From an uncultured Eubacteriales bacterium (GTDB lineage: Bacteria; Bacillota; Clostridia; Christensenellales; UBA1242): a DNA stretch of 64,000 bases. A model generated the notes under the pieces. That model made no database searches and was not told where the DNA came from. It saw only the letters and a list, made by a program, of their open reading frames with translations. The translations under genes and the position numbers were made by a program. Positions 12,647-23,263 of this stretch are shown here, one piece after another. The stretch is from the NCBI GenBank assembly GCA_949001935.1, contig CARJLX010000001.1, positions 67,231-131,230 on the forward strand, read 5' to 3'. Positions within the stretch are counted from its first letter, which is position 1. Every line of letters begins with the position of its first letter.

Positions 12647-14290
12647 ATGGGAACATTAAAAATTACAGAAGATGATATTACAAAAATTATTCTTGGCAGA
12701 GTTAATTCTGAAGCAGAAAAATATTGGATTAAGTCTATGATTCGAGCTTTGCCATCAACCTTAGAAGGCACAGTTGTTGAGGTTGCACCAATCGAAGTTG
12801 ACGGGGGAGGGAATTCAAAAGTTACTTTTGATAAATTCACTATTAATATTGAAGGCGAACTTGCTAAATATGCTGATGAAATAAACCAAGATTATGTAGA
12901 CATTATGTGTGAAATTCAACCTGAGTTTAAAAGGTTCTATGAAAAATCTATGGAAGCAATAGAAGAAAAGACTAGAATTTTTAAGCAAAGATTATTGGAA
13001 GAATTTAATAAAAATGGCTATGTAAAAAATGACATTAAATGTATTCTTACTGGCACTGGTGTTAAAGATTTAACTCAACGGTTAGAAGCTATTAAGCATG
13101 GCGAATTTATTGCACCGATTTCAAATAAACTTAATACCCCTAATAGAAAATTCGAGCAAGGTGAAGTTTATTATGCAAATTTAAATCCTGCTTTAGTCGG
13201 TGAATTTGCAGGAGTTAGGCCAGTTGTTATTGTTGCGTGTAATGATTTTTCACTCACAATTTTGCCACTAACAAGTAAATTGGAACAAAAGGGAAACGAA
13301 GAATATCATGTTTTAGTAAAAGCAGATAAATATGATGTTAAGAATTTTACAGATTCTATTGTTTGTACTGAAGTTGTCAAAACTGTCGATAAAAGTAGAA
13401 TTTACGGCAAGGTTTTGACTTTAGATGAAGAAGATACTAATAAAATTGTAGAATTAATGGGAAAACGACTTTTTGGTGACAAATATCTTGCTCCAAGTGA
13501 TGAGTATGAAGCTTATGATATTTTTAGCGAAGAAGAGGTAGAAAAATTTGAGCGTGAGCAAGAATTAGAAGAAAAAAAGAAGGCTGAACAAGCAACCTTA
13601 AAGCAAGATAAATCGCTTAAACCTTCAAATACATTCCATACAGTGGAAAAGTTTATCAATAATCCACAAAGTGAATGCACAATTGGTGAAATTTTATATG
13701 GGATTAAAGAAGAAAAAGTTGAGGACAAAAATTTTATATGTGTAGTAGATAATTCTGTAAAGAAAACGCCAGCAGTTATTTATGAATTGACGGATGAAGA
13801 AGCCATTCAAATTTGTGAACAAAAATTTGAGGGGATGAGAGCAAATGGTTCAAGATTATCTTTTCAAGATCCTATTGTTTTAAGTAATAATTCTCTTCAA
13901 GAAGGCATTAAAATTGCATATAACACAAAAAATGTTAATGGAAAAGAGGGGAAATATTACACAGAAATTTCTTTATCCTCATTTTATGGAACATATGAAT
14001 GCGGAAGTAAAAAAAATAATAATGATATGGATTTAACTTTGTATTTGGCTTCAAAAATGGTTGAAAAATATGGAGATCATTATAAAAACAATTTCTGTAA
14101 GAATTATGTTAAGTATTTTAATAGATTTTATGAATATAATGGTGATCTAAATAAAAATATTAATCTTTTAGATTACTTCTTAAGTTTTGTTGGCAAAAAA
14201 GCAAATAATTCAAATGAATTGGTTATCAATGGATTAAGTGCATATGATTATTATAGTCTAGAAGATATAACAGAAGACGTACAGCAATAA
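12647..14290 (+). CDS. Multidomain protein with an embedded MazF/PemK-like endoribonuclease domain (residues about 168-277 of 547)
   Basis: GEVYYANLNPALVGEFAGVRPVVIVA...ILPLTSK...SIVCTEVVKTVDKSRIYGKVLTLDEEDTNKIVELMGKRL matches the MazF/PemK pattern end to end. Unrecognised regions of about 165 aa (N-terminal) and about 270 aa (C-terminal) flank it. Confidence 0.7.
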   Translation: MGTLKITEDDITKIILGRVNSEAEKYWIKSMIRALPSTLEGTVVEVAPIEVDGGGNSKVTFDKFTINIEGELAKYADEINQDYVDIMCEIQPEFKRFYEKSMEAIEEKTRIFKQRLLEEFNKNGYVKNDIKCILTGTGVKDLTQRLEAIKHGEFIAPISNKLNTPNRKFEQGEVYYANLNPALVGEFAGVRPVVIVACNDFSLTILPLTSKLEQKGNEEYHVLVKADKYDVKNFTDSIVCTEVVKTVDKSRIYGKVLTLDEEDTNKIVELMGKRLFGDKYLAPSDEYEAYDIFSEEEVEKFEREQELEEKKKAEQATLKQDKSLKPSNTFHTVEKFINNPQSECTIGEILYGIKEEKVEDKNFICVVDNSVKKTPAVIYELTDEEAIQICEQKFEGMRANGSRLSFQDPIVLSNNSLQEGIKIAYNTKNVNGKEGKYYTEISLSSFYGTYECGSKKNNNDMDLTLYLASKMVEKYGDHYKNNFCKNYVKYFNRFYEYNGDLNKNINLLDYFLSFVGKKANNSNELVINGLSAYDYYSLEDITEDVQQ

Positions 14291-14315
14291 AAAGTGGCAA
14301 AAGCCACTTTTTTTG
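14288..14315 (+). terminator. Intrinsic terminator (GTGGCA-aaa-GCCAC type)
   Basis: TAA-AAAGTGGCAAAAGCCAC followed by T7, starting at the stop codon. Confidence 0.8.
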
Positions 14316-14393
14316 ATTATTTTTGATTTTTGTTTTACTTTTTTTAAAATTTTGTATATTCTATTTATATAGTTATTTTTTCAAGGAGAAATT

Positions 14394-15128
14394 ATGGCAG
14401 AAAAAAAAGTAAATGAAAGCAATGCTAGAAGATTTCTTAATGCTTTCAATAATATTGATTATGCTTTAAAAACGCGTTATGGCATGCATAGAAGTATGGG
14501 TTTTTCTGATATGATTAGAAAAACGGTTGTTCTTAATTATATTGTTCGTAAAAATGAAGATAGTTTGATTGATTATGGGCGTCTTAGAAATGCTATTATT
14601 CACAATGCAAACGAAGATATTGTTATTGCAGAACCTCATGATAGTGTGGTTGAGGATATTGAGCGTATAGAAAAACTTTTAACAACTCCTCCTAAGGCTT
14701 TAGATTCGGTTGCTCATCGTGATGTTTTAACTATTAGTGCAGATAAAAGCATGTATGATGTTATCACTTTAATGGCAAACTCTAAGTATTCAAATATTCC
14801 TGTTTACAATGGTGAAGTTTTGATGGGCGTTGCAAATGGTCAAAAAATATTGGACTCTTTTGGACAATTTCTTTTAGCTGGTGGCAAGAGTGATGTTTTC
14901 TTAAAAAGTGTTAAGATTGAAGATATGCTCTCTGCACTTGAAAATTCTAATTATTATGTTATTGCTTCAAGTGACGTGACTGTTGAGGAAGCTTTAAATG
15001 AATTTCATAAAAATCCAAAATTGCTTGCAATTTTGATTACTCCAAATGGTGAAATTAATCAAAAGGTTTTGGGTATTGTCACAGGCAGTGACGTTATGGA
15101 TATGAATAAGATTATGGATTTATATTGA
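14394..15128 (+). CDS. HEPN-like (Rx4H) N-terminal domain fused to a CBS-domain pair
   Basis: Residues 1-95 are helical and carry YGRLRNAIIHN (R65-x4-H70). Residues about 100-244 form two CBS-like repeats (VLTISADKSMYDVITLMANSKYSNIPVY..., and VTVEEALNEFHKNPKLLAILIT). Confidence 0.6.
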   Translation: MAEKKVNESNARRFLNAFNNIDYALKTRYGMHRSMGFSDMIRKTVVLNYIVRKNEDSLIDYGRLRNAIIHNANEDIVIAEPHDSVVEDIERIEKLLTTPPKALDSVAHRDVLTISADKSMYDVITLMANSKYSNIPVYNGEVLMGVANGQKILDSFGQFLLAGGKSDVFLKSVKIEDMLSALENSNYYVIASSDVTVEEALNEFHKNPKLLAILITPNGEINQKVLGIVTGSDVMDMNKIMDLY

Positions 15129-15212
15129 TAAACCAAATATTGTGCAATTATTTTAATTAATTTTACTTGACATTTTTATAGTTTTAGTTATACTTAAATT
15201 ATCATCTTAATT

Positions 15213-15446
15213 AAATGCGTTGATGAAAGACAGGGTTGTAAGTGGAGATTTTCAGAGAGTTGTTGGTTGGTGCAAAACAATAAATTGAAACTTGGAATTA
15301 TCACTTTCGGAGTTGCTATCTGAAAATTATAGTAGGGTTTGCCGGTTCTTCCCGTTATAGAAGGCGTGAGTGATGGCTCACAGAAAAGTTTACAAGTGGT
15401 TATAACCTTTTTAAGCACGGGGGTCTTGTATCTTCCGTGCTTTTTC
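15213..15446 (+). promoter_or_regulatory. T-box riboswitch leader (Ile specifier AUC) with terminator
   Basis: Stem I elements GATGAAAGA...AGTGG...CAGAGAG...GGTGCAA; a candidate specifier GAATTATCAC (AUC then A); a degenerate T-box AAGTGGTTATAAC; and terminator GCACGG...CCGTGC followed by T5. A putative promoter TTGACA-16-TATACT lies at 15167-15194. Confidence 0.7.
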
Positions 15447-15647: not shown

Positions 15648-15668
15648 ATATTGAATAAGGAGAAGGAA

Positions 15669-18600
15669 ATGAAAAAAGAAAATTCAATGCCAAATTTTGT
15701 TGAGATGGAACATGGTGTTCTAAAATTTTGGAATGACAACAAATGTTTCAACAAGCTTCAAGCGCAAAATGCAGGACACGAGCGTTTTAAATTTTTGGAC
15801 GGCCCAGCAACAGCAAATAATCGTTTAGGAATTCATCATTTTTGGGGAAGAACACTTAAAGATATGACTATTCGTTATAACGCCCTTAAAGGTAGGGATT
15901 GCCAATTTCAAAATGGTTTTGACGGTCAAGGTCTTTGGGTGGAAGTTAATGTTGAAAAAGAATTAGGGCTTAACGGCAAGCCAGAAATTCAACAATATGG
16001 AATTGATAAATTTACCAACAAGTGTATGGAGCGTGTTGCATATTTTGGCAATGAAATAACAAATCAATCTAAGCGTATGGGGCAATGGATGGATTGGGAT
16101 CATAGTTATTACACCAACACTGATGAAAATATAACTTCTATTTGGCATTTTCTTAAAAAATGTGATGAAAAAGGTTGGATTGTTAAGAAAAATAGACCTA
16201 TGGCTTGGTGTCCTCGTTGCGGAACAAGTTTAAGTGAACATGAGATGTCATCTTCTTATCATGAAGTTGAACATACAGCTATTTATGCTAAATTCCCTGT
16301 TAAAGGTAAGGATTTTTATATTATTGCATGGACAACTACTCCTTGGACATTGTCAGCTAATGTAGCCCTTGCTGTTAATCCAGAGTTTGATTATGTTAAA
16401 GTGGAATTTAATGGTGAAAAGATTGTTTTAGGTAAAGATAGATTAAAACTTTTAAAACAAGAGGTAAAAATTCTTGAGACTTTTAAAGGTTCACAGCTTG
16501 TTGGGCTTGAATATGAAACTTGTTTTCCTGAACTAACAGAACAAAATTTTGTGCACCATGTTGTTGCATGGGATGAAGTATCAAATGAAGATGGTTCTTG
16601 TGTCGTTCACATTGCACCAGGTTGTGGAGCTGAAGATTTTGAGCTTGGAGTATCATTAGGACTTCCTGAAATTTGTCCAATTAACGAACAAGGCGTAATG
16701 CTTCCTTCAACTGGTTTCTTGGCTGGTAAAAAGACTACTGAAGTTATAGATATGGTTGTTGACAGACTTAAACAAGACAACAAATTGTTATATGCACATA
16801 AACACAAGCATTCATATCCTTTCTGTTGGAGATGTAAAACTGACCTCGTTTACAAACTTATAAATGCATGGTTTATCAAGGTTGACGAAATTCGCCCAAT
16901 GGCACTCAAAGCTATTGAAGAAGTTGAGTTTAAGCCTGAATATGCTAAAAAGCGTATGGTTGATTGGCTTACAAACATGGGTGACTGGAACATTTCGAGA
17001 AGTCGTTTTTATGGGCTTCCACTTCCTTTCTATGTTTGTGAAAAGTGTGGAAAAGTTCATGTTATTGGATCACTAGAAGAACTTAAAGCTAAGGCAGTTG
17101 ACCCTAGTCTTGTAGATAATTTACCAAATATTCACAGGCCTTGGATTGATGAAATCAAAATTAAATGTGAGTGTGGTGAAGAGCTTTCTCGAATTCCAGA
17201 GGTTGGAGATGTTTGGCTTGATGCTGGTATCACACCTTTCTCAACTAAGAAATATTTTACTGATAAAAAGTTCTTTGAAGAAAATTTCCCAAGCGATTAT
17301 GTTTGCGAAATGATTGAACAAATTAAGCTTTGGTTCTACTCACTTTTAATGATGAGTGTTGTTCTGACAGGTAAAGCTCCCTACAAAAAGGTTGTGACTT
17401 ATCAATATGTTCGTGACGAAAATGGAGGAGAGTTCCACAAGAGTGGTGGAAATTCTTTGGAAGCTGACCATGTGGCAGACAAGGTGGGGGCAGATGTTGT
17501 GCGTTATCTTTATTGTTCTTCAAGTCCTGTAAACGATATGCGTTTCGGTTTCAATTTAACAGACGAGGCAAGGCGTAAACTTTTAGGTTTTTGGAATATT
17601 TACACTTTCTTTAACACATATGCTTGTATTGACAATCCAGACATTGCTGATTTTTACCCAAAAGAGAAAGATCTTTCTTATGCTGACAAGTGGCTTATTG
17701 AAAGCGTGAATAAGTTTATCATTGAAAGTGATGAAAACTTTGCCAATGATAGAAACAACTTTGTTGTTCGGGATTTTGAAAAGCTCGTTGATGATATTTC
17801 AAATTACTACATTCGTGCAAACCGTAAGCGTTTCTGGAAGAGTGAAAATAAAAATGATCAATTAACAGCTTATTGGTGCTTGTATTATGCTATCAAATCA
17901 ATTATTCAAGTTATGACACCAATAATACCATTTATGACAGAATATATCTGGCAAAATATGGTTAGAGCGGTTGAAGAAAATGAAAAAGAATGCATTATGC
18001 TTGCAGGTTTCCCAGAAAAGCTTTACGACAAAGCTTTTGATGGCGTACTTGAAACAACACAAATTGCAAGAGATATTATGTCTACTGCTCAACGCCTTAG
18101 AAATGAAAATCAAATTAAGGTTAAGCAACCTTTAAGAAAAATGTTTGTTGCAGGTAGTGAAAATGTAGATAAGGTTATCGAAAATCTTGGAGAAATTATT
18201 AAGGACGAACTTAATATCAAAGAGATTGAGCGCGTAACTGACGACTCTATGTTCAATGACGAATATTTATCTGTCAACTTTAAAAAGGCTGGTGCAGTAC
18301 TTAAAGGTGATGTCCAAAAACTGAAGAATGCTTTGGCAGAACTTTCAGATGAACAAATTAAATTTGTTATGAATGGTTATCATTCAGGCAAGGTGAGCGT
18401 AGGTGAATTTAAAGATTTAGACAGTGAACTTTTCAATCTTGAAAAGAGACCAAAAACAGACTTTGTTATCGCTCACGAAAATGGAAACACTGTTGTGCTT
18501 GATATTAATCTAGATAGAGCTTTAATTTTGGAAGGCTATTATAGAGAGTTTGTGAGAGGACTTCAAGTTCTTCGAAAAGAGGCTGACCTTTCTATTGATG

Positions 18601-18788
18601 AACGAATTTATGTTTACTTTGAAACTGGTGACGATGACTTGGCTGAAATGTTATTTGAGTTTATGGATAAAATTAAGCAAGAAGTTTTGATTATTCGAGC
18701 AGTAGAAAAAATTGTTAAACCTATTATTGAAAAAAATATTGAGGTAGGTGACAGTTTTATTATTGCTAAGTTTGAAAAAGCTGAATAA
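15669..18788 (+). CDS. ileS: Isoleucine--tRNA ligase (type 2, long form)
   Basis: About 1039 aa. The N-terminal class-I pattern F.FLDGPATANN.LGIHH...KD...RY matches the actinobacterial/clostridial type-2 IleRS pattern. It has the zinc motif WCPRCGT and a preceding Ile T-box. Start set at ATG 15669, behind AAGGAGAAGG; the ORF track uses TTG 15651. Confidence 0.9.
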   Translation: MKKENSMPNFVEMEHGVLKFWNDNKCFNKLQAQNAGHERFKFLDGPATANNRLGIHHFWGRTLKDMTIRYNALKGRDCQFQNGFDGQGLWVEVNVEKELGLNGKPEIQQYGIDKFTNKCMERVAYFGNEITNQSKRMGQWMDWDHSYYTNTDENITSIWHFLKKCDEKGWIVKKNRPMAWCPRCGTSLSEHEMSSSYHEVEHTAIYAKFPVKGKDFYIIAWTTTPWTLSANVALAVNPEFDYVKVEFNGEKIVLGKDRLKLLKQEVKILETFKGSQLVGLEYETCFPELTEQNFVHHVVAWDEVSNEDGSCVVHIAPGCGAEDFELGVSLGLPEICPINEQGVMLPSTGFLAGKKTTEVIDMVVDRLKQDNKLLYAHKHKHSYPFCWRCKTDLVYKLINAWFIKVDEIRPMALKAIEEVEFKPEYAKKRMVDWLTNMGDWNISRSRFYGLPLPFYVCEKCGKVHVIGSLEELKAKAVDPSLVDNLPNIHRPWIDEIKIKCECGEELSRIPEVGDVWLDAGITPFSTKKYFTDKKFFEENFPSDYVCEMIEQIKLWFYSLLMMSVVLTGKAPYKKVVTYQYVRDENGGEFHKSGGNSLEADHVADKVGADVVRYLYCSSSPVNDMRFGFNLTDEARRKLLGFWNIYTFFNTYACIDNPDIADFYPKEKDLSYADKWLIESVNKFIIESDENFANDRNNFVVRDFEKLVDDISNYYIRANRKRFWKSENKNDQLTAYWCLYYAIKSIIQVMTPIIPFMTEYIWQNMVRAVEENEKECIMLAGFPEKLYDKAFDGVLETTQIARDIMSTAQRLRNENQIKVKQPLRKMFVAGSENVDKVIENLGEIIKDELNIKEIERVTDDSMFNDEYLSVNFKKAGAVLKGDVQKLKNALAELSDEQIKFVMNGYHSGKVSVGEFKDLDSELFNLEKRPKTDFVIAHENGNTVVLDINLDRALILEGYYREFVRGLQVLRKEADLSIDERIYVYFETGDDDLAEMLFEFMDKIKQEVLIIRAVEKIVKPIIEKNIEVGDSFIIAKFEKAE

Positions 18789-18940: not shown

Positions 18941-19543
18941 ATGGAAACCAAGTACTTAAAAGGAGAGATAGAAAAGTTTGATTACAGCAAAATTATTTTG
19001 ACCTATCAACAATATTCACATGCAGATTTATGTAAAACAGGGCCGTGTGAGAATGGTGGGGAAAGTAATAGAATGTGTTGCAAGCCATTTATTCATCGTA
19101 TTCATGAACCAAAAAATATGCATACATTGCCAAAACATCCACATTGTGATTGTTTTTACAAAATTGTCAAAACAAAGTCGTTTGGAAGTATTTCTAAAAA
19201 AGGAACAGAGGCACCAGATGTATGGCTTAAACTCTTTCGCAAATTGCCTGACTATTATATAACAGAGCAAGAAGCAATAGAAGTTTATGGTTGGAACAAA
19301 AATAAAAACACAATTTCGGGCAAAGCACCCGGTAAAATGATAGGTGGAGATGTTTATAAAAATAACAAGCATATTTTGCCAGAAAAAGACGGAAGAGTTT
19401 GGTATCATTGTGATGTTGATTATGAATACGGTGCAAGAAATAGTCTAAGATTATATTATTCAAATGATGGATTGATGTTTTATTCACCAACACACCTTGA
19501 TGGGGATGTAATAGTTTATCAAATAAAAGGAAGTGAAAAATAA
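18941..19543 (+). CDS. Barnase-family ribonuclease toxin with short N-terminal MuF-like (HPxCxC) remnant
   Basis: The C-terminal 100 aa align by eye with barnase: KLPDYYITEQEAIEVYGW / APGKMIGGDVY / GRVWYHCDVDY / GARNSLRLYYS / THLDG. The N-terminus carries LPKHPHCDCFY. Confidence 0.85.
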   Translation: METKYLKGEIEKFDYSKIILTYQQYSHADLCKTGPCENGGESNRMCCKPFIHRIHEPKNMHTLPKHPHCDCFYKIVKTKSFGSISKKGTEAPDVWLKLFRKLPDYYITEQEAIEVYGWNKNKNTISGKAPGKMIGGDVYKNNKHILPEKDGRVWYHCDVDYEYGARNSLRLYYSNDGLMFYSPTHLDGDVIVYQIKGSEK

Positions 19544-19544
19544 A

Positions 19545-19871
19545 ATGAAAGAATTAATTTTTAATAGAAAGGATTACAAAAATTATCAAGAAATGTATAG
19601 TGATATGGCGATAAAATTTGGAGATGTTGGAACACAAGATTATTATGATACTTCATGTTTTGATTTTAATCCAGATATTTTATGGGAATTTTTGTTATGT
19701 TCATATGCGTTTACAAAAATTGATATAAAAATTGTTTTAGTTGGGTTTGCCCGAGAAAAGATTAAAGAAGAAAAAAATTATAACGATTATGAGTATAATA
19801 TGATTTTAAATGTTTTTGAAGATTTTGTTAAAGAATATCCAAATAATAAATTAGAATTTAGGGATGAATAA
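19545..19871 (+). CDS. Barstar-like immunity protein
   Basis: 108 aa, starting immediately after the toxin stop. FNPDILWEFLLC resembles the barstar inhibitory helix (ENLDALWDCLTG). Confidence 0.7.
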   Translation: MKELIFNRKDYKNYQEMYSDMAIKFGDVGTQDYYDTSCFDFNPDILWEFLLCSYAFTKIDIKIVLVGFAREKIKEEKNYNDYEYNMILNVFEDFVKEYPNNKLEFRDE

Positions 19872-19965: not shown

Positions 19966-20826
19966 ATGAAATTAGCAGAAAATTGGGTTGATTACAAGGT
20001 TTTAGCTACTGGTGATGGTGAAAAGTTGGAAAGGTGGGGGAATATTACCTTGCTTCGTCCTGATCCTCAAGTTATTTGGCATGCAAAAAGTGATTTGACA
20101 AAGACAAAAGGACTTGACGCACATTACAAACGCGAAAGCACGGGTGGCGGACATTGGCAATATCTTAAAAAGATACCAGATGAATGGGTTATCTCATGGC
20201 AGGGAATAAAATTTTCTATCAAACCTATGGGTTTTAAGCATACTGGATTATTTCCAGAGCAAGCAGTTAATTGGCAAGATATGTCAAAACTTATTAAAGA
20301 TGCTAAACGCGAAATCAAAGTTTTAAATTTGTTTGCTTATACTGGCGGGGCGAGCGTTGTATGTGCTAAGGCTGGAGCAAAGGTGACTCATGTTGACGCA
20401 AGCAAAGGTATGGTTGAGCGAGCTAAAGAAAATGCTAAACTCAATCAAATTGACAACATTCGATTTATCATTGACGATTGCAAAAAGTTTATTGAGCGTG
20501 AGATAAGGCGTGGAAACAAGTATGACGCAATAATTATGGATCCACCAAGTTATGGACGAGGAACAAGTGGGGAAACTTGGAAACTTGAGGATAATCTTTT
20601 TGATTTTGTATCGGTTTGCAAAGGTGTTTTGTCTGACAAGCCATTGTTTGTGCTTATCAGTTCTTACACAACAGGACTGCAACCGGGGGTTTTGACAAAT
20701 GTGTTAGGGCTTAACTTTGGTTATTCAAATATAGACGCAGACGAAATCGGCTTGCCAAGCGAAGACGGCACAATCTTGCCTTGTGGAGCAAGAGGATTGA
20801 AGGTGTTTAGGGGGGAGAATGAATAG
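19966..20826 (+). CDS. Class I SAM-dependent methyltransferase (RlmI/RlmK-like catalytic domain, no PUA)
   Basis: SAM-binding motif VLNLFAYTGGASV, followed by DAIIMDPPSYGRG (DPPxY/F motif). Confidence 0.7.
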   Translation: MKLAENWVDYKVLATGDGEKLERWGNITLLRPDPQVIWHAKSDLTKTKGLDAHYKRESTGGGHWQYLKKIPDEWVISWQGIKFSIKPMGFKHTGLFPEQAVNWQDMSKLIKDAKREIKVLNLFAYTGGASVVCAKAGAKVTHVDASKGMVERAKENAKLNQIDNIRFIIDDCKKFIEREIRRGNKYDAIIMDPPSYGRGTSGETWKLEDNLFDFVSVCKGVLSDKPLFVLISSYTTGLQPGVLTNVLGLNFGYSNIDADEIGLPSEDGTILPCGARGLKVFRGENE

Positions 20827-21952
20827 GTTTGTATATTTAGATAACAATGCGACAACCAAAATTTCAGCCGCTATTAAAGAAAAATTGCAACCATATTTGG
20901 ATTTGCAATATGGGAATCCAAGTTCACTTTATGGGCATGGAATAAAAATTAAGAAAGAAATATTAAAAGCACGTCAAAATTGTGCAGATCTTTTAAATTG
21001 CAAGCCAAATAATTTAATTTTTACAAGTGGTGGAAGTGAAAGTAATTGTTCTGCATTTAATTCGGCAGTTAATCAATTCCCAAACAAAAAGAAAATAATA
21101 ACAACAAAAGTTGAGCATAGTTCAATATTAGAATATTGCAAAATTCTTGAAAAGAAAGGTTATGAAATTGTTTATTTGGATGTAGATGAAAATTGCAATA
21201 TAAATTTAAAACAACTTGAACAAGAAGTAGATAAAAAAACTTGCCTTGTTTCAATTCAGTTTGCAAACAATGAAGTGGGAACGATTTTACTCACAAAAGA
21301 GTTTATATCAAAGATTAAAAGTCTTAAAAATGAATTTAATTTTCTGTTTCATGTTGACGCTGTTCAAGGACTTGGTAAATTTAAAATTGATATTGATGAT
21401 TTGAACGCAGATTTCATTTCTTGTTCAGGGCATAAAATACATTGTCCAAAAGGAATTGGGTTGCTTTACATTAAGGACACTAAAAACTTTATTCCTTTAA
21501 TTGCAGGACATCAAGAATTTGGGCTTCGTGGTGGAACTGAAAATGTTTTGGGTATTATTGCTTTGGGAGAATCTTGCAATTATATAAACAACAATTTTAA
21601 AGAAATTCAAGAGAAAATTATTGAAACTCACAAATATTTGGAAGAGCAACTTTCAACGATTAGAGGGTTAAAGATTAATTGTAAAGATGTAGAGAGGATT
21701 CCAAACACAACGAGTATAACATTTGATGAGATTTTTGGGAATCAACTAATGTTTAAATTCGACCAAGTAGGAATATGTGTTTCAACTGGTTCAGCTTGTA
21801 ACAGTGAAAGCAGTGAGCCAAGTTATGTTTTGACAAGTATGGGTTTGAAAAATCCACAGAATACAATTCGAGTTAGCATTGATGAAAATACAACCAAAAG
21901 TCAAATAGATTATTTCATAGAAAATCTAAAAAATATTTTAAAAGGAGAATAG
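20819..21952 (+). CDS. Cysteine desulfurase, second copy (NifS-like)
   Basis: 377 aa with PLP-Lys context SGHKIHCPKG and Cys loop TGSACNS. It overlaps the methyltransferase gene by 8 nt. Confidence 0.85.
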   Translation: MNRFVYLDNNATTKISAAIKEKLQPYLDLQYGNPSSLYGHGIKIKKEILKARQNCADLLNCKPNNLIFTSGGSESNCSAFNSAVNQFPNKKKIITTKVEHSSILEYCKILEKKGYEIVYLDVDENCNINLKQLEQEVDKKTCLVSIQFANNEVGTILLTKEFISKIKSLKNEFNFLFHVDAVQGLGKFKIDIDDLNADFISCSGHKIHCPKGIGLLYIKDTKNFIPLIAGHQEFGLRGGTENVLGIIALGESCNYINNNFKEIQEKIIETHKYLEEQLSTIRGLKINCKDVERIPNTTSITFDEIFGNQLMFKFDQVGICVSTGSACNSESSEPSYVLTSMGLKNPQNTIRVSIDENTTKSQIDYFIENLKNILKGE

Positions 21953-21954
21953 TT

Positions 21955-22545
21955 ATGCCAGCTATTATTAATCATAAAATTTGTGACCAAGCAAATGCCT
22001 GTGGAGGAATTAGTGTATGTCCAGTTGGAGCATTCACTTACAATGAAAAAACAAAAAGAATTGAAATCGACAATGACAAATGCATCTCTTGTGGAGCATG
22101 TGCAAAAACTTGTCCTATTGGTGCAATTGGAGTTGCAAAAACTTGGGAAGAGTTTGAAGAACTCAAACAATCTATTAACGAAGATCCAAGAAGTGCAGAT
22201 GATTTGTTCGTTGACAGATTTGGTGGTGATATTATCAATGAAAATGTTTTGATTGATTTTGAAAATCTTGATAAAATGATTAAAGAAAATGATAAAGTTA
22301 TTATTGAACTTTTTAATGACGATAGCATCATGTGTTTGTTAAAATCAATACCATATCAAGATATTTTAGAAAATTCGAATTATACAAAATATTATAGATG
22401 TAATGTTGGAGAAAATGATTTTTCAAAATATGGAATTACAGAACTTCCAAGTTTATTGTTGTGCAATAATGGCATGGTTAAAAAAGTTATTAATGGATAT
22501 TTTGAAGAAAAAGATAAAGAAAAATTATTTGCATTATTAAAATAA
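21955..22545 (+). CDS. 4Fe-4S ferredoxin domain fused to a thioredoxin-like domain lacking CxxC
   Basis: CISCGACAKTCPIGAI plus an upstream C..C....CP cluster. The C-terminal 110 aa look thioredoxin-fold (ITELPSLLLCNNG) but have no CxxC. Confidence 0.6.
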   Translation: MPAIINHKICDQANACGGISVCPVGAFTYNEKTKRIEIDNDKCISCGACAKTCPIGAIGVAKTWEEFEELKQSINEDPRSADDLFVDRFGGDIINENVLIDFENLDKMIKENDKVIIELFNDDSIMCLLKSIPYQDILENSNYTKYYRCNVGENDFSKYGITELPSLLLCNNGMVKKVINGYFEEKDKEKLFALLK

Positions 22546-22561
22546 AGTTTAAGGATAAATT

Positions 22562-23263
22562 ATGGAAGAGAAATTAAACGTTTTATATGAAGATAATCAT
22601 ATTGTGGTGGTGATTAAGCCTCAAAATATGCCTTCGCAGGAGGATGAAAGCGGGGACATGGATTTATTGACGCTTGTTAAAAGTTATATAAAGGAAAAGT
22701 ATAACAAGCCAGGCGAGGTTTTTATTGGGCTTGTTCATAGATTGGATAGACCTACTGGTGGGATTATGGTCTTTGCACGTAATTCTAAATCGGCAGGGCG
22801 TTTAAGCGAGCAAATTCGTGATCACAAAATGCAGAAAACTTATTATGCTATTTGCAAAGGTTGTCCAAAAGATAAAAGTGGTATACTTGTGAACTATCTC
22901 AAAAAGGATGAAAAAGAAAACATTGTTAAAATCGTCACCATGGGTTCTGTTGACGCTAAAAAAGCCGAACTAGAATATAAAGTTTTGCAAACTATTGGAG
23001 ATGAATCTCTTTTAGAGATAAAAATTATTACAGGGAGAAGTCATCAAATTCGTGTGCAACTTGCTGGAATCAATTGCCCGCTTGTAGGTGATAACAAATA
23101 TGGCAAAGACAAAACTCGTGCCAGCAGAAACTTAGGGCTATGGGCTGGGAAACTTGAATTTACTCATCCTGTATCAAAAGAAAAATTGACCTTTATGGCA
23201 ATGCCAGACACAAGCAAGTCGCCTTGGAAAGATTTTTATCTTGATAAATATTTTATACGCTAA
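22562..23263 (+). CDS. RluA-family pseudouridine synthase (no S4 domain)
   Basis: 233 aa with catalytic motif HRLDRPTGG and GRSHQIRVQ. Confidence 0.85.
   Translation: MEEKLNVLYEDNHIVVVIKPQNMPSQEDESGDMDLLTLVKSYIKEKYNKPGEVFIGLVHRLDRPTGGIMVFARNSKSAGRLSEQIRDHKMQKTYYAICKGCPKDKSGILVNYLKKDEKENIVKIVTMGSVDAKKAELEYKVLQTIGDESLLEIKIITGRSHQIRVQLAGINCPLVGDNKYGKDKTRASRNLGLWAGKLEFTHPVSKEKLTFMAMPDTSKSPWKDFYLDKYFIR

Follow-up and report, generated by a model that had tools for sequence, protein, structure and literature searches.

A HEPN-like domain fused to a CBS pair

The window analysed here is a 64,000-nucleotide stretch of the genome of an uncultured Eubacteriales bacterium (contig CARJLX010000001.1, positions 67,231 to 131,230 of the forward strand). 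The gene under study, hereafter the HEPN-CBS gene, lies at positions 14394..15128 on the plus strand, between a MazF-fusion gene and ileS. It is a complete open reading frame (ORF) with an ATG start and encodes a protein of 244 residues, in which a HEPN-like domain is followed by a CBS pair. The ORF is present exactly as claimed in a preliminary description of this DNA, which had proposed that the protein may be a small-molecule-gated RNase and that it might form a two-gene system with the MazF fusion. The elements of the protein are as follows.

14394..14693, plus strand: N-terminal helical domain, residues 1-100, putative minimal HEPN domain (AlphaFold2, profile searches)
14457..14471, plus strand: D22-x3-K26, a [DE]x3[KR] motif in the first long helix of the model, candidate auxiliary acidic active-site residue
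14586..14603, plus strand: R65-N66-A-I-I-H70, Rx4H motif, putative catalytic site (R, N and H in 74/74 homologues)
14628..14639, plus strand: A79-E80-P81-H82 (IAEPH), loop between the motif helix and the last helix (column counts)
14694..14876, plus strand: first CBS domain, about residues 101-161 (Pfam CBS stretch at residues 105-146, secondary structure, column counts)
14907..15125, plus strand: second CBS domain, about residues 172-244 (second Pfam CBS stretch, Foldseek matches to CBS pairs)
15072..15092, plus strand: G227-I-V-T230-G-S-D233, canonical G-h-h-T-x-x-D ribose-binding motif of the second CBS domain (column counts)

The HEPN-CBS gene differs from that of a 95%-identical relative (locus L001) by 57 synonymous and 13 non-synonymous codon changes, indicating that the gene is functional, constrained and under purifying selection.

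Invariant residues and helix order of the N-terminal domain

The sequence YGRLRNAIIHN occupies residues 61-71 (nucleotides 14574-14606), with the codons of R65 and H70 at 14586-14588 and 14601-14603, respectively, so that the earlier placement of RNAIIH at 14586-14603 and the R65/H70 numbering are correct. An RxxxxH motif occurs once in the 244-residue protein, and 0.20 occurrences are expected by chance from its composition (0.017 for RNxxxH); the motif alone is therefore weak evidence. The conservation, in contrast, is striking: among 74 aligned homologues (25-63% identity to the window protein), no change is seen at L64, R65, N66, H70, A79 or P81. The R/H pair, whose conservation the preliminary description had made decisive for its proposal, is thus kept in 74/74 sequences.

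HEPN domains are described as having a third helix that ends with the motif, an R usually followed by N, D or H, commonly an Ex3[KR] motif upstream, and typically inserts between helices 2 and 3 (PMC3710099). The present family shows all of these features. The family has the polar residue N66 directly after the conserved R in 74/74 members. Upstream, D22-x3-K26 fits the [DE]x3[KR] pattern, with D or E at position 22 in 72/74 and R or K at position 26 in 64/74 homologues. In the IAEPH loop, where A79 and P81 are found in 74/74 sequences, E80 is kept in 59/74 and H82 in 50/74, and this segment presumably shapes the putative active-site loop.

CBS pairs crowded the results of a Foldseek search of the PDB with the full-length model, which was uninformative on the N-terminal domain; this domain was then modelled alone. 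The AlphaFold2 model (predicted local distance difference test score, pLDDT, 89.9) contains helices at residues 10-29, 37-44, 49-53 (short), 55-69 and 83-97, in keeping with the helical N-terminal part that had been predicted. R65 falls within the final turn of the third long helix (55-69), and the loop that follows begins with H70. The model thus shows the HEPN helix order with the motif ending helix 3, rather than the non-HEPN fold that would have counted against the proposal, while alignments to HEPN profiles hint that the first canonical helix may be absent.

Individual scans of 30 diverse N-terminal sequences from the family against Pfam, NCBIfam and PADLOC gave converging weak matches. 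The Pfam families matched by more than one sequence were RiboL-PSP (20), HepT-like (10), DUF3644 (5), Cthe_2314 (5) and Apea (2), all of them HEPN families (DUF3644 is classed as such in PMC3710099), together with DUF6548, a family of unknown function (12/30). The NCBIfam model HepT_toxin was matched by 8/30 sequences and the PADLOC model CARF_HEPN, weakly, by 9/30, and Cas13c was also matched. The best E-values of the weak matches to HEPN families were 8e-5 to 6e-4. Both a HMMER profile search of the PDB (HepT at E ~1) and hhalign placed LRNxxVH in register with HepT, and the HepT toxin chain 7bxo_D was the sole Foldseek match with a query template-modelling (TM) score above 0.5 (0.51, 24% identity, E 7.7). 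DUF6548 also gave the best single Pfam match when the family consensus was searched (profile positions 2-78 of 164, E 7.6e-5, 23.1 bits with a cut-off of 27.3); it may be an unrecognised relative of the HEPN-like domain.

A CBS pair with one putative ligand site

The tandem CBS pair of the preliminary description was borne out by both Pfam and structure comparison. Pfam CBS (PF00571) matched the protein in two stretches with 45.2 bits against a cut-off of 24, and the full-length AlphaFold2 model (pLDDT 84.9) matched dozens of solved CBS pairs in Foldseek with target-normalised TM scores of 0.7-0.8, including 3fv6, 5g5x and 3kpb at E 1e-6 to 2e-7. The sequence GhhTxxD is the ribose-binding motif of CBS domains that bind adenosyl ligands. 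The second CBS domain carries the corresponding G-h-h-[ST]-x-x-[DN] site, with G227 kept in 57/74, T230 in 70/74 and D233 in 69/74 homologues, and the equivalent position of the first CBS domain is degenerate in the subfamily (G145-V-A-N148-G-Q-K). An intact site in the second domain and a degenerate one in the first suggest one putative adenosyl-ligand site per protomer.

In 25/74 members, the N-terminal region of PrdR, a sigma-54 regulator, was matched weakly but recurrently (best E 1.2e-7, far below the cut-off). In the window protein, the match runs from residue 64 to 156 (14583-14861) and aligns to profile positions 28-125 of 577. Since it covers the end of the HEPN-like domain and the first CBS domain, the sensor region of PrdR may hold a related segment.

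A large family with the behaviour of a core gene

In a database clustered at 90% identity, 729 homologues were found at E ≤ 1e-3, and the top 120 were all full length and 63-95% identical. A profile of the N-terminal domain alone recovered 940 clusters (50% identity) at E ≤ 1e-3, of which 331 reach E ≤ 1e-10. Lengths of about 225-260 residues predominate among the 150 clusters listed, and the 74 aligned sequences all share the architecture of a HEPN-like domain and a CBS pair. A homologue search with the N-terminal 100 residues returned 14 truncated family members and no alternative architecture. At the DNA level, the pattern [YF][AG]xLRNAI[VI]H detected at least 577 relatives in metagenome contigs. 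A scan of genome contigs with the single protein gave two loci only, and the further loci came from other contig searches and the metagenome pattern scan. Named members are from Clostridia, Dehalococcoidia and Bacteroidales metagenome-assembled genomes (MAGs), a Chlorohelix plasmid (Chloroflexota), a Rhodococcus plasmid and Enterococcus faecalis DNA; their source annotations read solely "CBS domain-containing protein" or "hypothetical protein".

The family was found on 2 of 72,556 plasmid records and in two phage records, both labelled UNVERIFIED_ORG and both carrying bacterial housekeeping genes. The GenBank "phage" records OR846607.1 (L017) and OR849199.1 (L019) carry fhs, lspA, rluD, pyrR and pyrP and are probably host DNA. 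The latter is labelled as a Listeria phage; an origin from Listeria itself was rejected, as Listeria monocytogenes EGD-e has the permease gene lmo1845 5' of lspA (lmo1844). The HEPN-CBS family is not mobile but stand-alone, chromosomally conserved and probably vertically inherited.

In E. faecalis DNA, the gene order is fhs, the homologue (234 residues), lspA (with a 4-nt overlap), rluD, pyrR and pyrP. As EF1723 is LspA and EF1721 is pyrR, we infer from gene order that the homologue is EF1724. This gene, annotated as a CBS domain-containing protein, was classed as "Fitness Important" by transposon sequencing (Tn-seq) and belongs to the enterococcal core (PMC7701990).

Conserved neighbours downstream and variable ones upstream

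To relate the gene to its surroundings, we list the remaining features of the locus.

14344..14373, plus strand: weak sigma-70-like promoter candidate TTAAAA-18-TATAGT, 3' of the MazF-fusion terminator (9/12 consensus matches)
14383..14389, plus strand: Shine-Dalgarno-like AAGGAGA, 4 nt 5' of the ATG (direct sequence reading)
19966-20826: rRNA methyltransferase
22562-23263: RluA-family pseudouridine synthase

The promoter candidate is a consensus match only, and such sites are not enriched in this region relative to shuffled sequences. The MazF fusion ends 103 nt upstream of the HEPN-CBS gene on the same strand, and a terminator-like hairpin (14289-14312) 3' of it separates the two genes. No terminator hairpin was found 3' of the HEPN-CBS gene, where the minimum free energy (-4.8 kcal/mol) was weaker than that of shuffled sequences; the earlier statement that each gene has its own terminator thus holds for the MazF fusion and fails for the HEPN-CBS gene. 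The latter is followed by a promoter-like site (15167-15194) and then by the T-box leader of ileS (15211-15441), a full-length match with an AUC (Ile) specifier (69.7 bits, E 4.6e-15). As this score is below the Rfam gathering score of 93, the default scan missed the leader, and a scan by E-value found it.

The downstream neighbours of the gene are conserved. In relatives 65-72% identical to the window protein, ileS is directly downstream in every recovered locus, while the upstream genes differ (iscS/nifU or spoVA/yunB); in E. faecalis DNA the upstream neighbour is fhs. We then scored the next same-strand gene in 65 metagenome loci whose proteins are 36-69% identical and which have at least 400 nt of downstream DNA. 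It was ileS in 32, an RlmI/K-like class I S-adenosylmethionine (SAM)-dependent rRNA methyltransferase in 11 and an RluA-family pseudouridine synthase in 7, together 50/65. The methyltransferase or synthase often starts 3-90 nt past the stop codon of the HEPN-CBS gene, suggesting co-transcription. No conserved partner gene was found across the examined loci, including those of distant members (~30% identity), whose neighbours are diverse, and in none of the loci did a gene for an MNT nucleotidyltransferase antitoxin adjoin the HEPN-CBS gene.

The order in the window is the HEPN-CBS gene, T-box-ileS, two inserted genes, the methyltransferase, a NifS-like gene, a ferredoxin-like gene, the RluA-family synthase and PepF. 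The genes for a NifS-type cysteine desulfurase (377 residues) and a 4Fe-4S ferredoxin-like protein (196 residues) occupy 20819-22545, between the methyltransferase and the synthase, which are adjacent in L003-L006. The two inserted genes (18941-19871) are a 200-residue ORF with a Cys/His-rich N-terminus and a weak barnase-type match (PF00545, residues 106-185, E 2.6e-4, 21.9 bits against a cut-off of 24), and an overlapping 112-residue ORF with no family match, possibly an inhibitor. As the methyltransferase directly follows ileS in L003, L006, L026 and other loci, the barnase-like pair looks like an insertion. Two types of ileS, 33-36% identical to each other, occupy the same slot 3' of the HEPN-CBS gene in related genomes: the window type (15651-18788) in some loci (73-86% identity) and the L003 type in others, with flanking genes 60-75% identical (L002-L008, L021-L099). 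Two types between conserved flanks suggest in-place replacement of ileS by a distant homologue.

Adjacency of the MazF fusion and the HEPN-CBS gene is confined to the window and L001 (95% and 97% protein identity), and neither a MazF fusion nor a MazF domain was found in L002-L019 or in any of the 47 metagenome loci that extend at least 1.5 kb upstream (0/47). To describe the locus as two RNase effectors between housekeeping operons is therefore misleading: the HEPN-CBS gene is itself a conserved resident of the cluster of ileS, rRNA methyltransferase and pseudouridine synthase genes, and the MazF fusion is a lineage-specific insertion. The fusion protein (12647-14290, 547 residues) has a PemK domain at residues 170-268 and matches MazF/PemK toxins only within about residues 150-290; its N- and C-terminal regions had no match in the phage or plasmid collections. 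In L001 (1036-3478), an additional ORF of 248 residues, absent from the window, lies between the GGGtGRT gene and the fusion gene, indicating that the spot near the MazF fusion varies even among near-identical genomes.

Relation to described HEPN systems

HEPN-CBS and HEPN-CBS-HD fusions were described computationally in 2013 by Anantharaman et al. within the Swt1-like/Abi2 HEPN assemblage, with alr3009 and gi 118580987 from Pelobacter propionicus as examples, and the CBS domains were predicted to sense nucleotide derivatives and to regulate RNA stability (PMC3710099). The window family shares with these fusions an Rx4H HEPN-type domain joined to CBS domains, and its best Pfam match, RiboL-PSP HEPN, belongs to the same broad Abi-related assemblage; this likeness is to the published description of the architecture. 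It differs in having no HD domain, and neither the position beside ileS, rRNA methyltransferase or pseudouridine synthase genes nor the core-gene behaviour is part of that description (PMC3710099).

The logic proposed below is that of the CARF-HEPN proteins (Csm6/Csx1) and RNase L, in which the composite Rx4-6H site of a HEPN dimer is under the allosteric control of a dimeric ligand sensor. Here, however, the sensor is a CBS pair rather than a CARF or an ankyrin/pseudokinase module, there is no CRISPR or cyclase context, the HEPN-like domain comes first, and the similarity is borne by the motif only. The HepT (DUF86) toxins of the HEPN-MNT type VII toxin-antitoxin systems (SO_3166; PDB 5yep, 7bxo) superposed best on the model (7bxo_D) and were also the top sequence match in the PDB. 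In contrast to HepT, which is controlled by AMPylation, the window domain is fused to a CBS pair, has no MNT gene nearby, may lack the first helix and matches HepT below all cut-offs. Membership in the type VII systems was therefore rejected, as there is no MNT neighbour and the HepT-like match reaches at most 14.9 bits against a cut-off of 23.5.

A proposed mechanism and the observations that weigh against it

Among the explanations considered, we lean modestly towards a stand-alone, chromosomally conserved sensor-RNase with a physiological role, not one as a toxin or in immunity. In the proposed mechanism, the CBS pair (Bateman module) would dimerise, and an adenosine-containing ligand would bind the canonical site of the second CBS domain (T230/D233). 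The ligand state would set the pairing geometry of the two N-terminal HEPN-like domains and, when these are correctly paired, their R65-N66-x3-H70 motifs would create an endoribonuclease site that needs no metal and yields 2',3'-cyclic phosphate ends. Of all this, the analysis establishes the gene with its domain architecture, invariant residues and helix order, its stand-alone state and its conserved neighbourhood, while HEPN homology, dimerisation, RNase activity, gating by a ligand and the substrate are inferred. The physiological role would be the processing or turnover of translation-related RNA (rRNA, tRNA or mRNA), tuned to the nucleotide or energy state. In a more specific version, which we hold only tentatively and consider rather doubtful as a whole, the protein would be a core, vertically inherited housekeeping HEPN endoRNase that cleaves rRNA, tRNA or leader RNA according to the adenylate or second-messenger state read by the CBS pair, its gene often being co-transcribed with those of an rRNA methyltransferase and a pseudouridine synthase or lying beside ileS or lspA-rluD.

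Several observations weigh against this interpretation. No match to a HEPN profile attained the curated cut-off in the Pfam, NCBIfam and PADLOC scans, the N-terminal domain of the window protein itself had no Pfam match, and Foldseek of the N-terminal model returned nothing at E < 1 in the PDB or BFVD. The hhalign comparison gave P = 0.031 over 26 columns against a truncated HepT alignment of low diversity, which came from a search with a HepT fragment of the PDB alignment that gave only short, close HepT fragments. When only R, N and H were replaced by Ala as a control, every HEPN match was abolished, indicating that the sequence similarity is carried by the motif from which the proposal started and is no independent evidence. 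Alignments to HEPN profiles skip roughly the first 30-100 profile positions, and in the HepT-like profile (120 positions) the aligned part starts near position 33, suggesting that the domain may be a minimal HEPN domain without the first canonical helix. The [DE]x3[KR] motif lies in the first helix of the model, whereas it is placed in helix 2 of HEPN domains (PMC3710099). With respect to the context, some distant members (~30% identity) adjoin defence genes, namely BREX in L009/L010 (a Bacteroidales MAG) and SIR2 with a helicase in L015; the conserved neighbourhood could be inherited synteny without a functional link; and the Tn-seq phenotype of EF1724 could be a polar effect on the overlapping lspA-rluD.

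Most HEPN families were first defined by motif and topology, and on this basis it is likely that the N-terminal domain is homologous to HEPN. The profile comparisons yielded converging HEPN matches, all of them below cut-off and motif-dependent. The central idea of the preliminary description, that an Rx4H HEPN domain and a CBS pair make a small-molecule-gated RNase, gains from the invariant R and H, the helix order and the published precedent, while HEPN membership is probable rather than established.

Alternative explanations

The protein could instead be a non-catalytic CBS-domain regulator, in which the helical bundle would be an adaptor that binds a ligand, a protein or RNA, by analogy with HEPN domains of the MtlR type or associated with nucleotidyltransferases and with the CBS regulators CcpN and AcuB, and the R, N and H residues would bind phosphate or a partner. 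Many CBS proteins are pure regulators, and the absence of a significant fold or profile match to catalytic HEPN families, with matches fully dependent on the motif, would fit such a role, as would the weak matches of 25/74 members to the N-terminal region of PrdR and a housekeeping context that is awkward for a potentially toxic RNase. We nevertheless consider this explanation unlikely. HEPN families that have turned non-catalytic characteristically lose Rx4-6H (PMC3710099), whereas R, N and H are invariant here across phyla, and N66 occupies the position at which, in KEN domains, the N after R contributes to catalysis (PMC3710099). Moreover, Pfam detected no DNA-binding domain, and the PrdR match reaches 24.9 bits against a cut-off of 795.

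A further explanation is an effector of phage defence or abortive infection similar to DS-11, a single protein with CBS and HEPN domains that would degrade RNA upon sensing an infection-derived adenine derivative. DS-11 (DefensePredictor; NCBIfam NF053863), an experimentally validated defence system reported in 2026, combines a CBS pair and a HEPN domain in one polypeptide; an adenine-derivative-gated dimeric RNase was proposed, and both Y157A (in the CBS domain, contacting adenine) and HEPN catalytic mutants lose anti-phage defence (PMC13092281). The window family has the same kind of single polypeptide, and the DS-11 model, DS11_antiphage, is the NCBIfam model that most members touch through their CBS pair (43/74, best E 1.7e-8). 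Defence genes lie beside some distant members (BREX in L009/L010; SIR2 with a large helicase in L015), and inserted toxin-type genes stand on either side of the gene in the window: the MazF fusion and, past ileS, the barnase-like gene. However, the DS-11 model matches only the first CBS domain, with 20.4 bits over residues 106-146 of the window protein and 19-23 bits in other members against a cut-off of 260, and it matches none of the N-terminal sequences, so that DS-11 membership of the window protein was rejected; PADLOC likewise gave no match for the whole protein. The context is one of housekeeping synteny (50/65 loci) and not of defence, and the position beside ileS, the rRNA methyltransferase or the pseudouridine synthase is kept across relatives 36-95% identical. 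Purifying selection, near absence from plasmids and phages, and an E. faecalis homologue that is genus-core and fitness-important form a pattern opposite to the patchy, island-borne distribution typical of defence genes. A DS-11-type effector is thus quite unlikely in our estimate.

Finally, a two-gene toxin module, in which the MazF fusion and the HEPN-CBS protein would be either two cooperating RNase effectors or a toxin and its regulator, is very improbable: the short same-strand spacing and the recurrence of the arrangement in L001 would favour it, but L001 is a near-identical relative and hence no independent support, a hairpin stands between the genes, the upstream neighbours vary while the downstream ones are conserved, and the lack of co-occurrence refutes the pair as a conserved system.

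Implications

HEPN-CBS fusions were known before; what is new is the evidence for a large family with core-gene behaviour and a link to ileS and rRNA-modification genes. To our knowledge, bacterial HEPN RNases are known almost entirely as toxins or immune effectors, such as HepT, Cas13, Csm6, RnlA, the Abi proteins and DS-11. The present family contrasts with these in that the same predicted chemistry, together with a predicted built-in nucleotide sensor, is found in a gene that behaves like one of the core, and defence should thus not be the default reading of a HEPN motif beside a toxin gene. If the protein is an active RNase, RNA processing or decay would be coupled directly to the energy or nucleotide status of enterococci and of many gut Clostridia. 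If it is moreover a housekeeping HEPN enzyme, its function would resemble that of eukaryotic Las1 or Ire1 more than that of toxins or immune effectors, and it would represent an undescribed nucleotide-gated step of RNA processing in Firmicutes.

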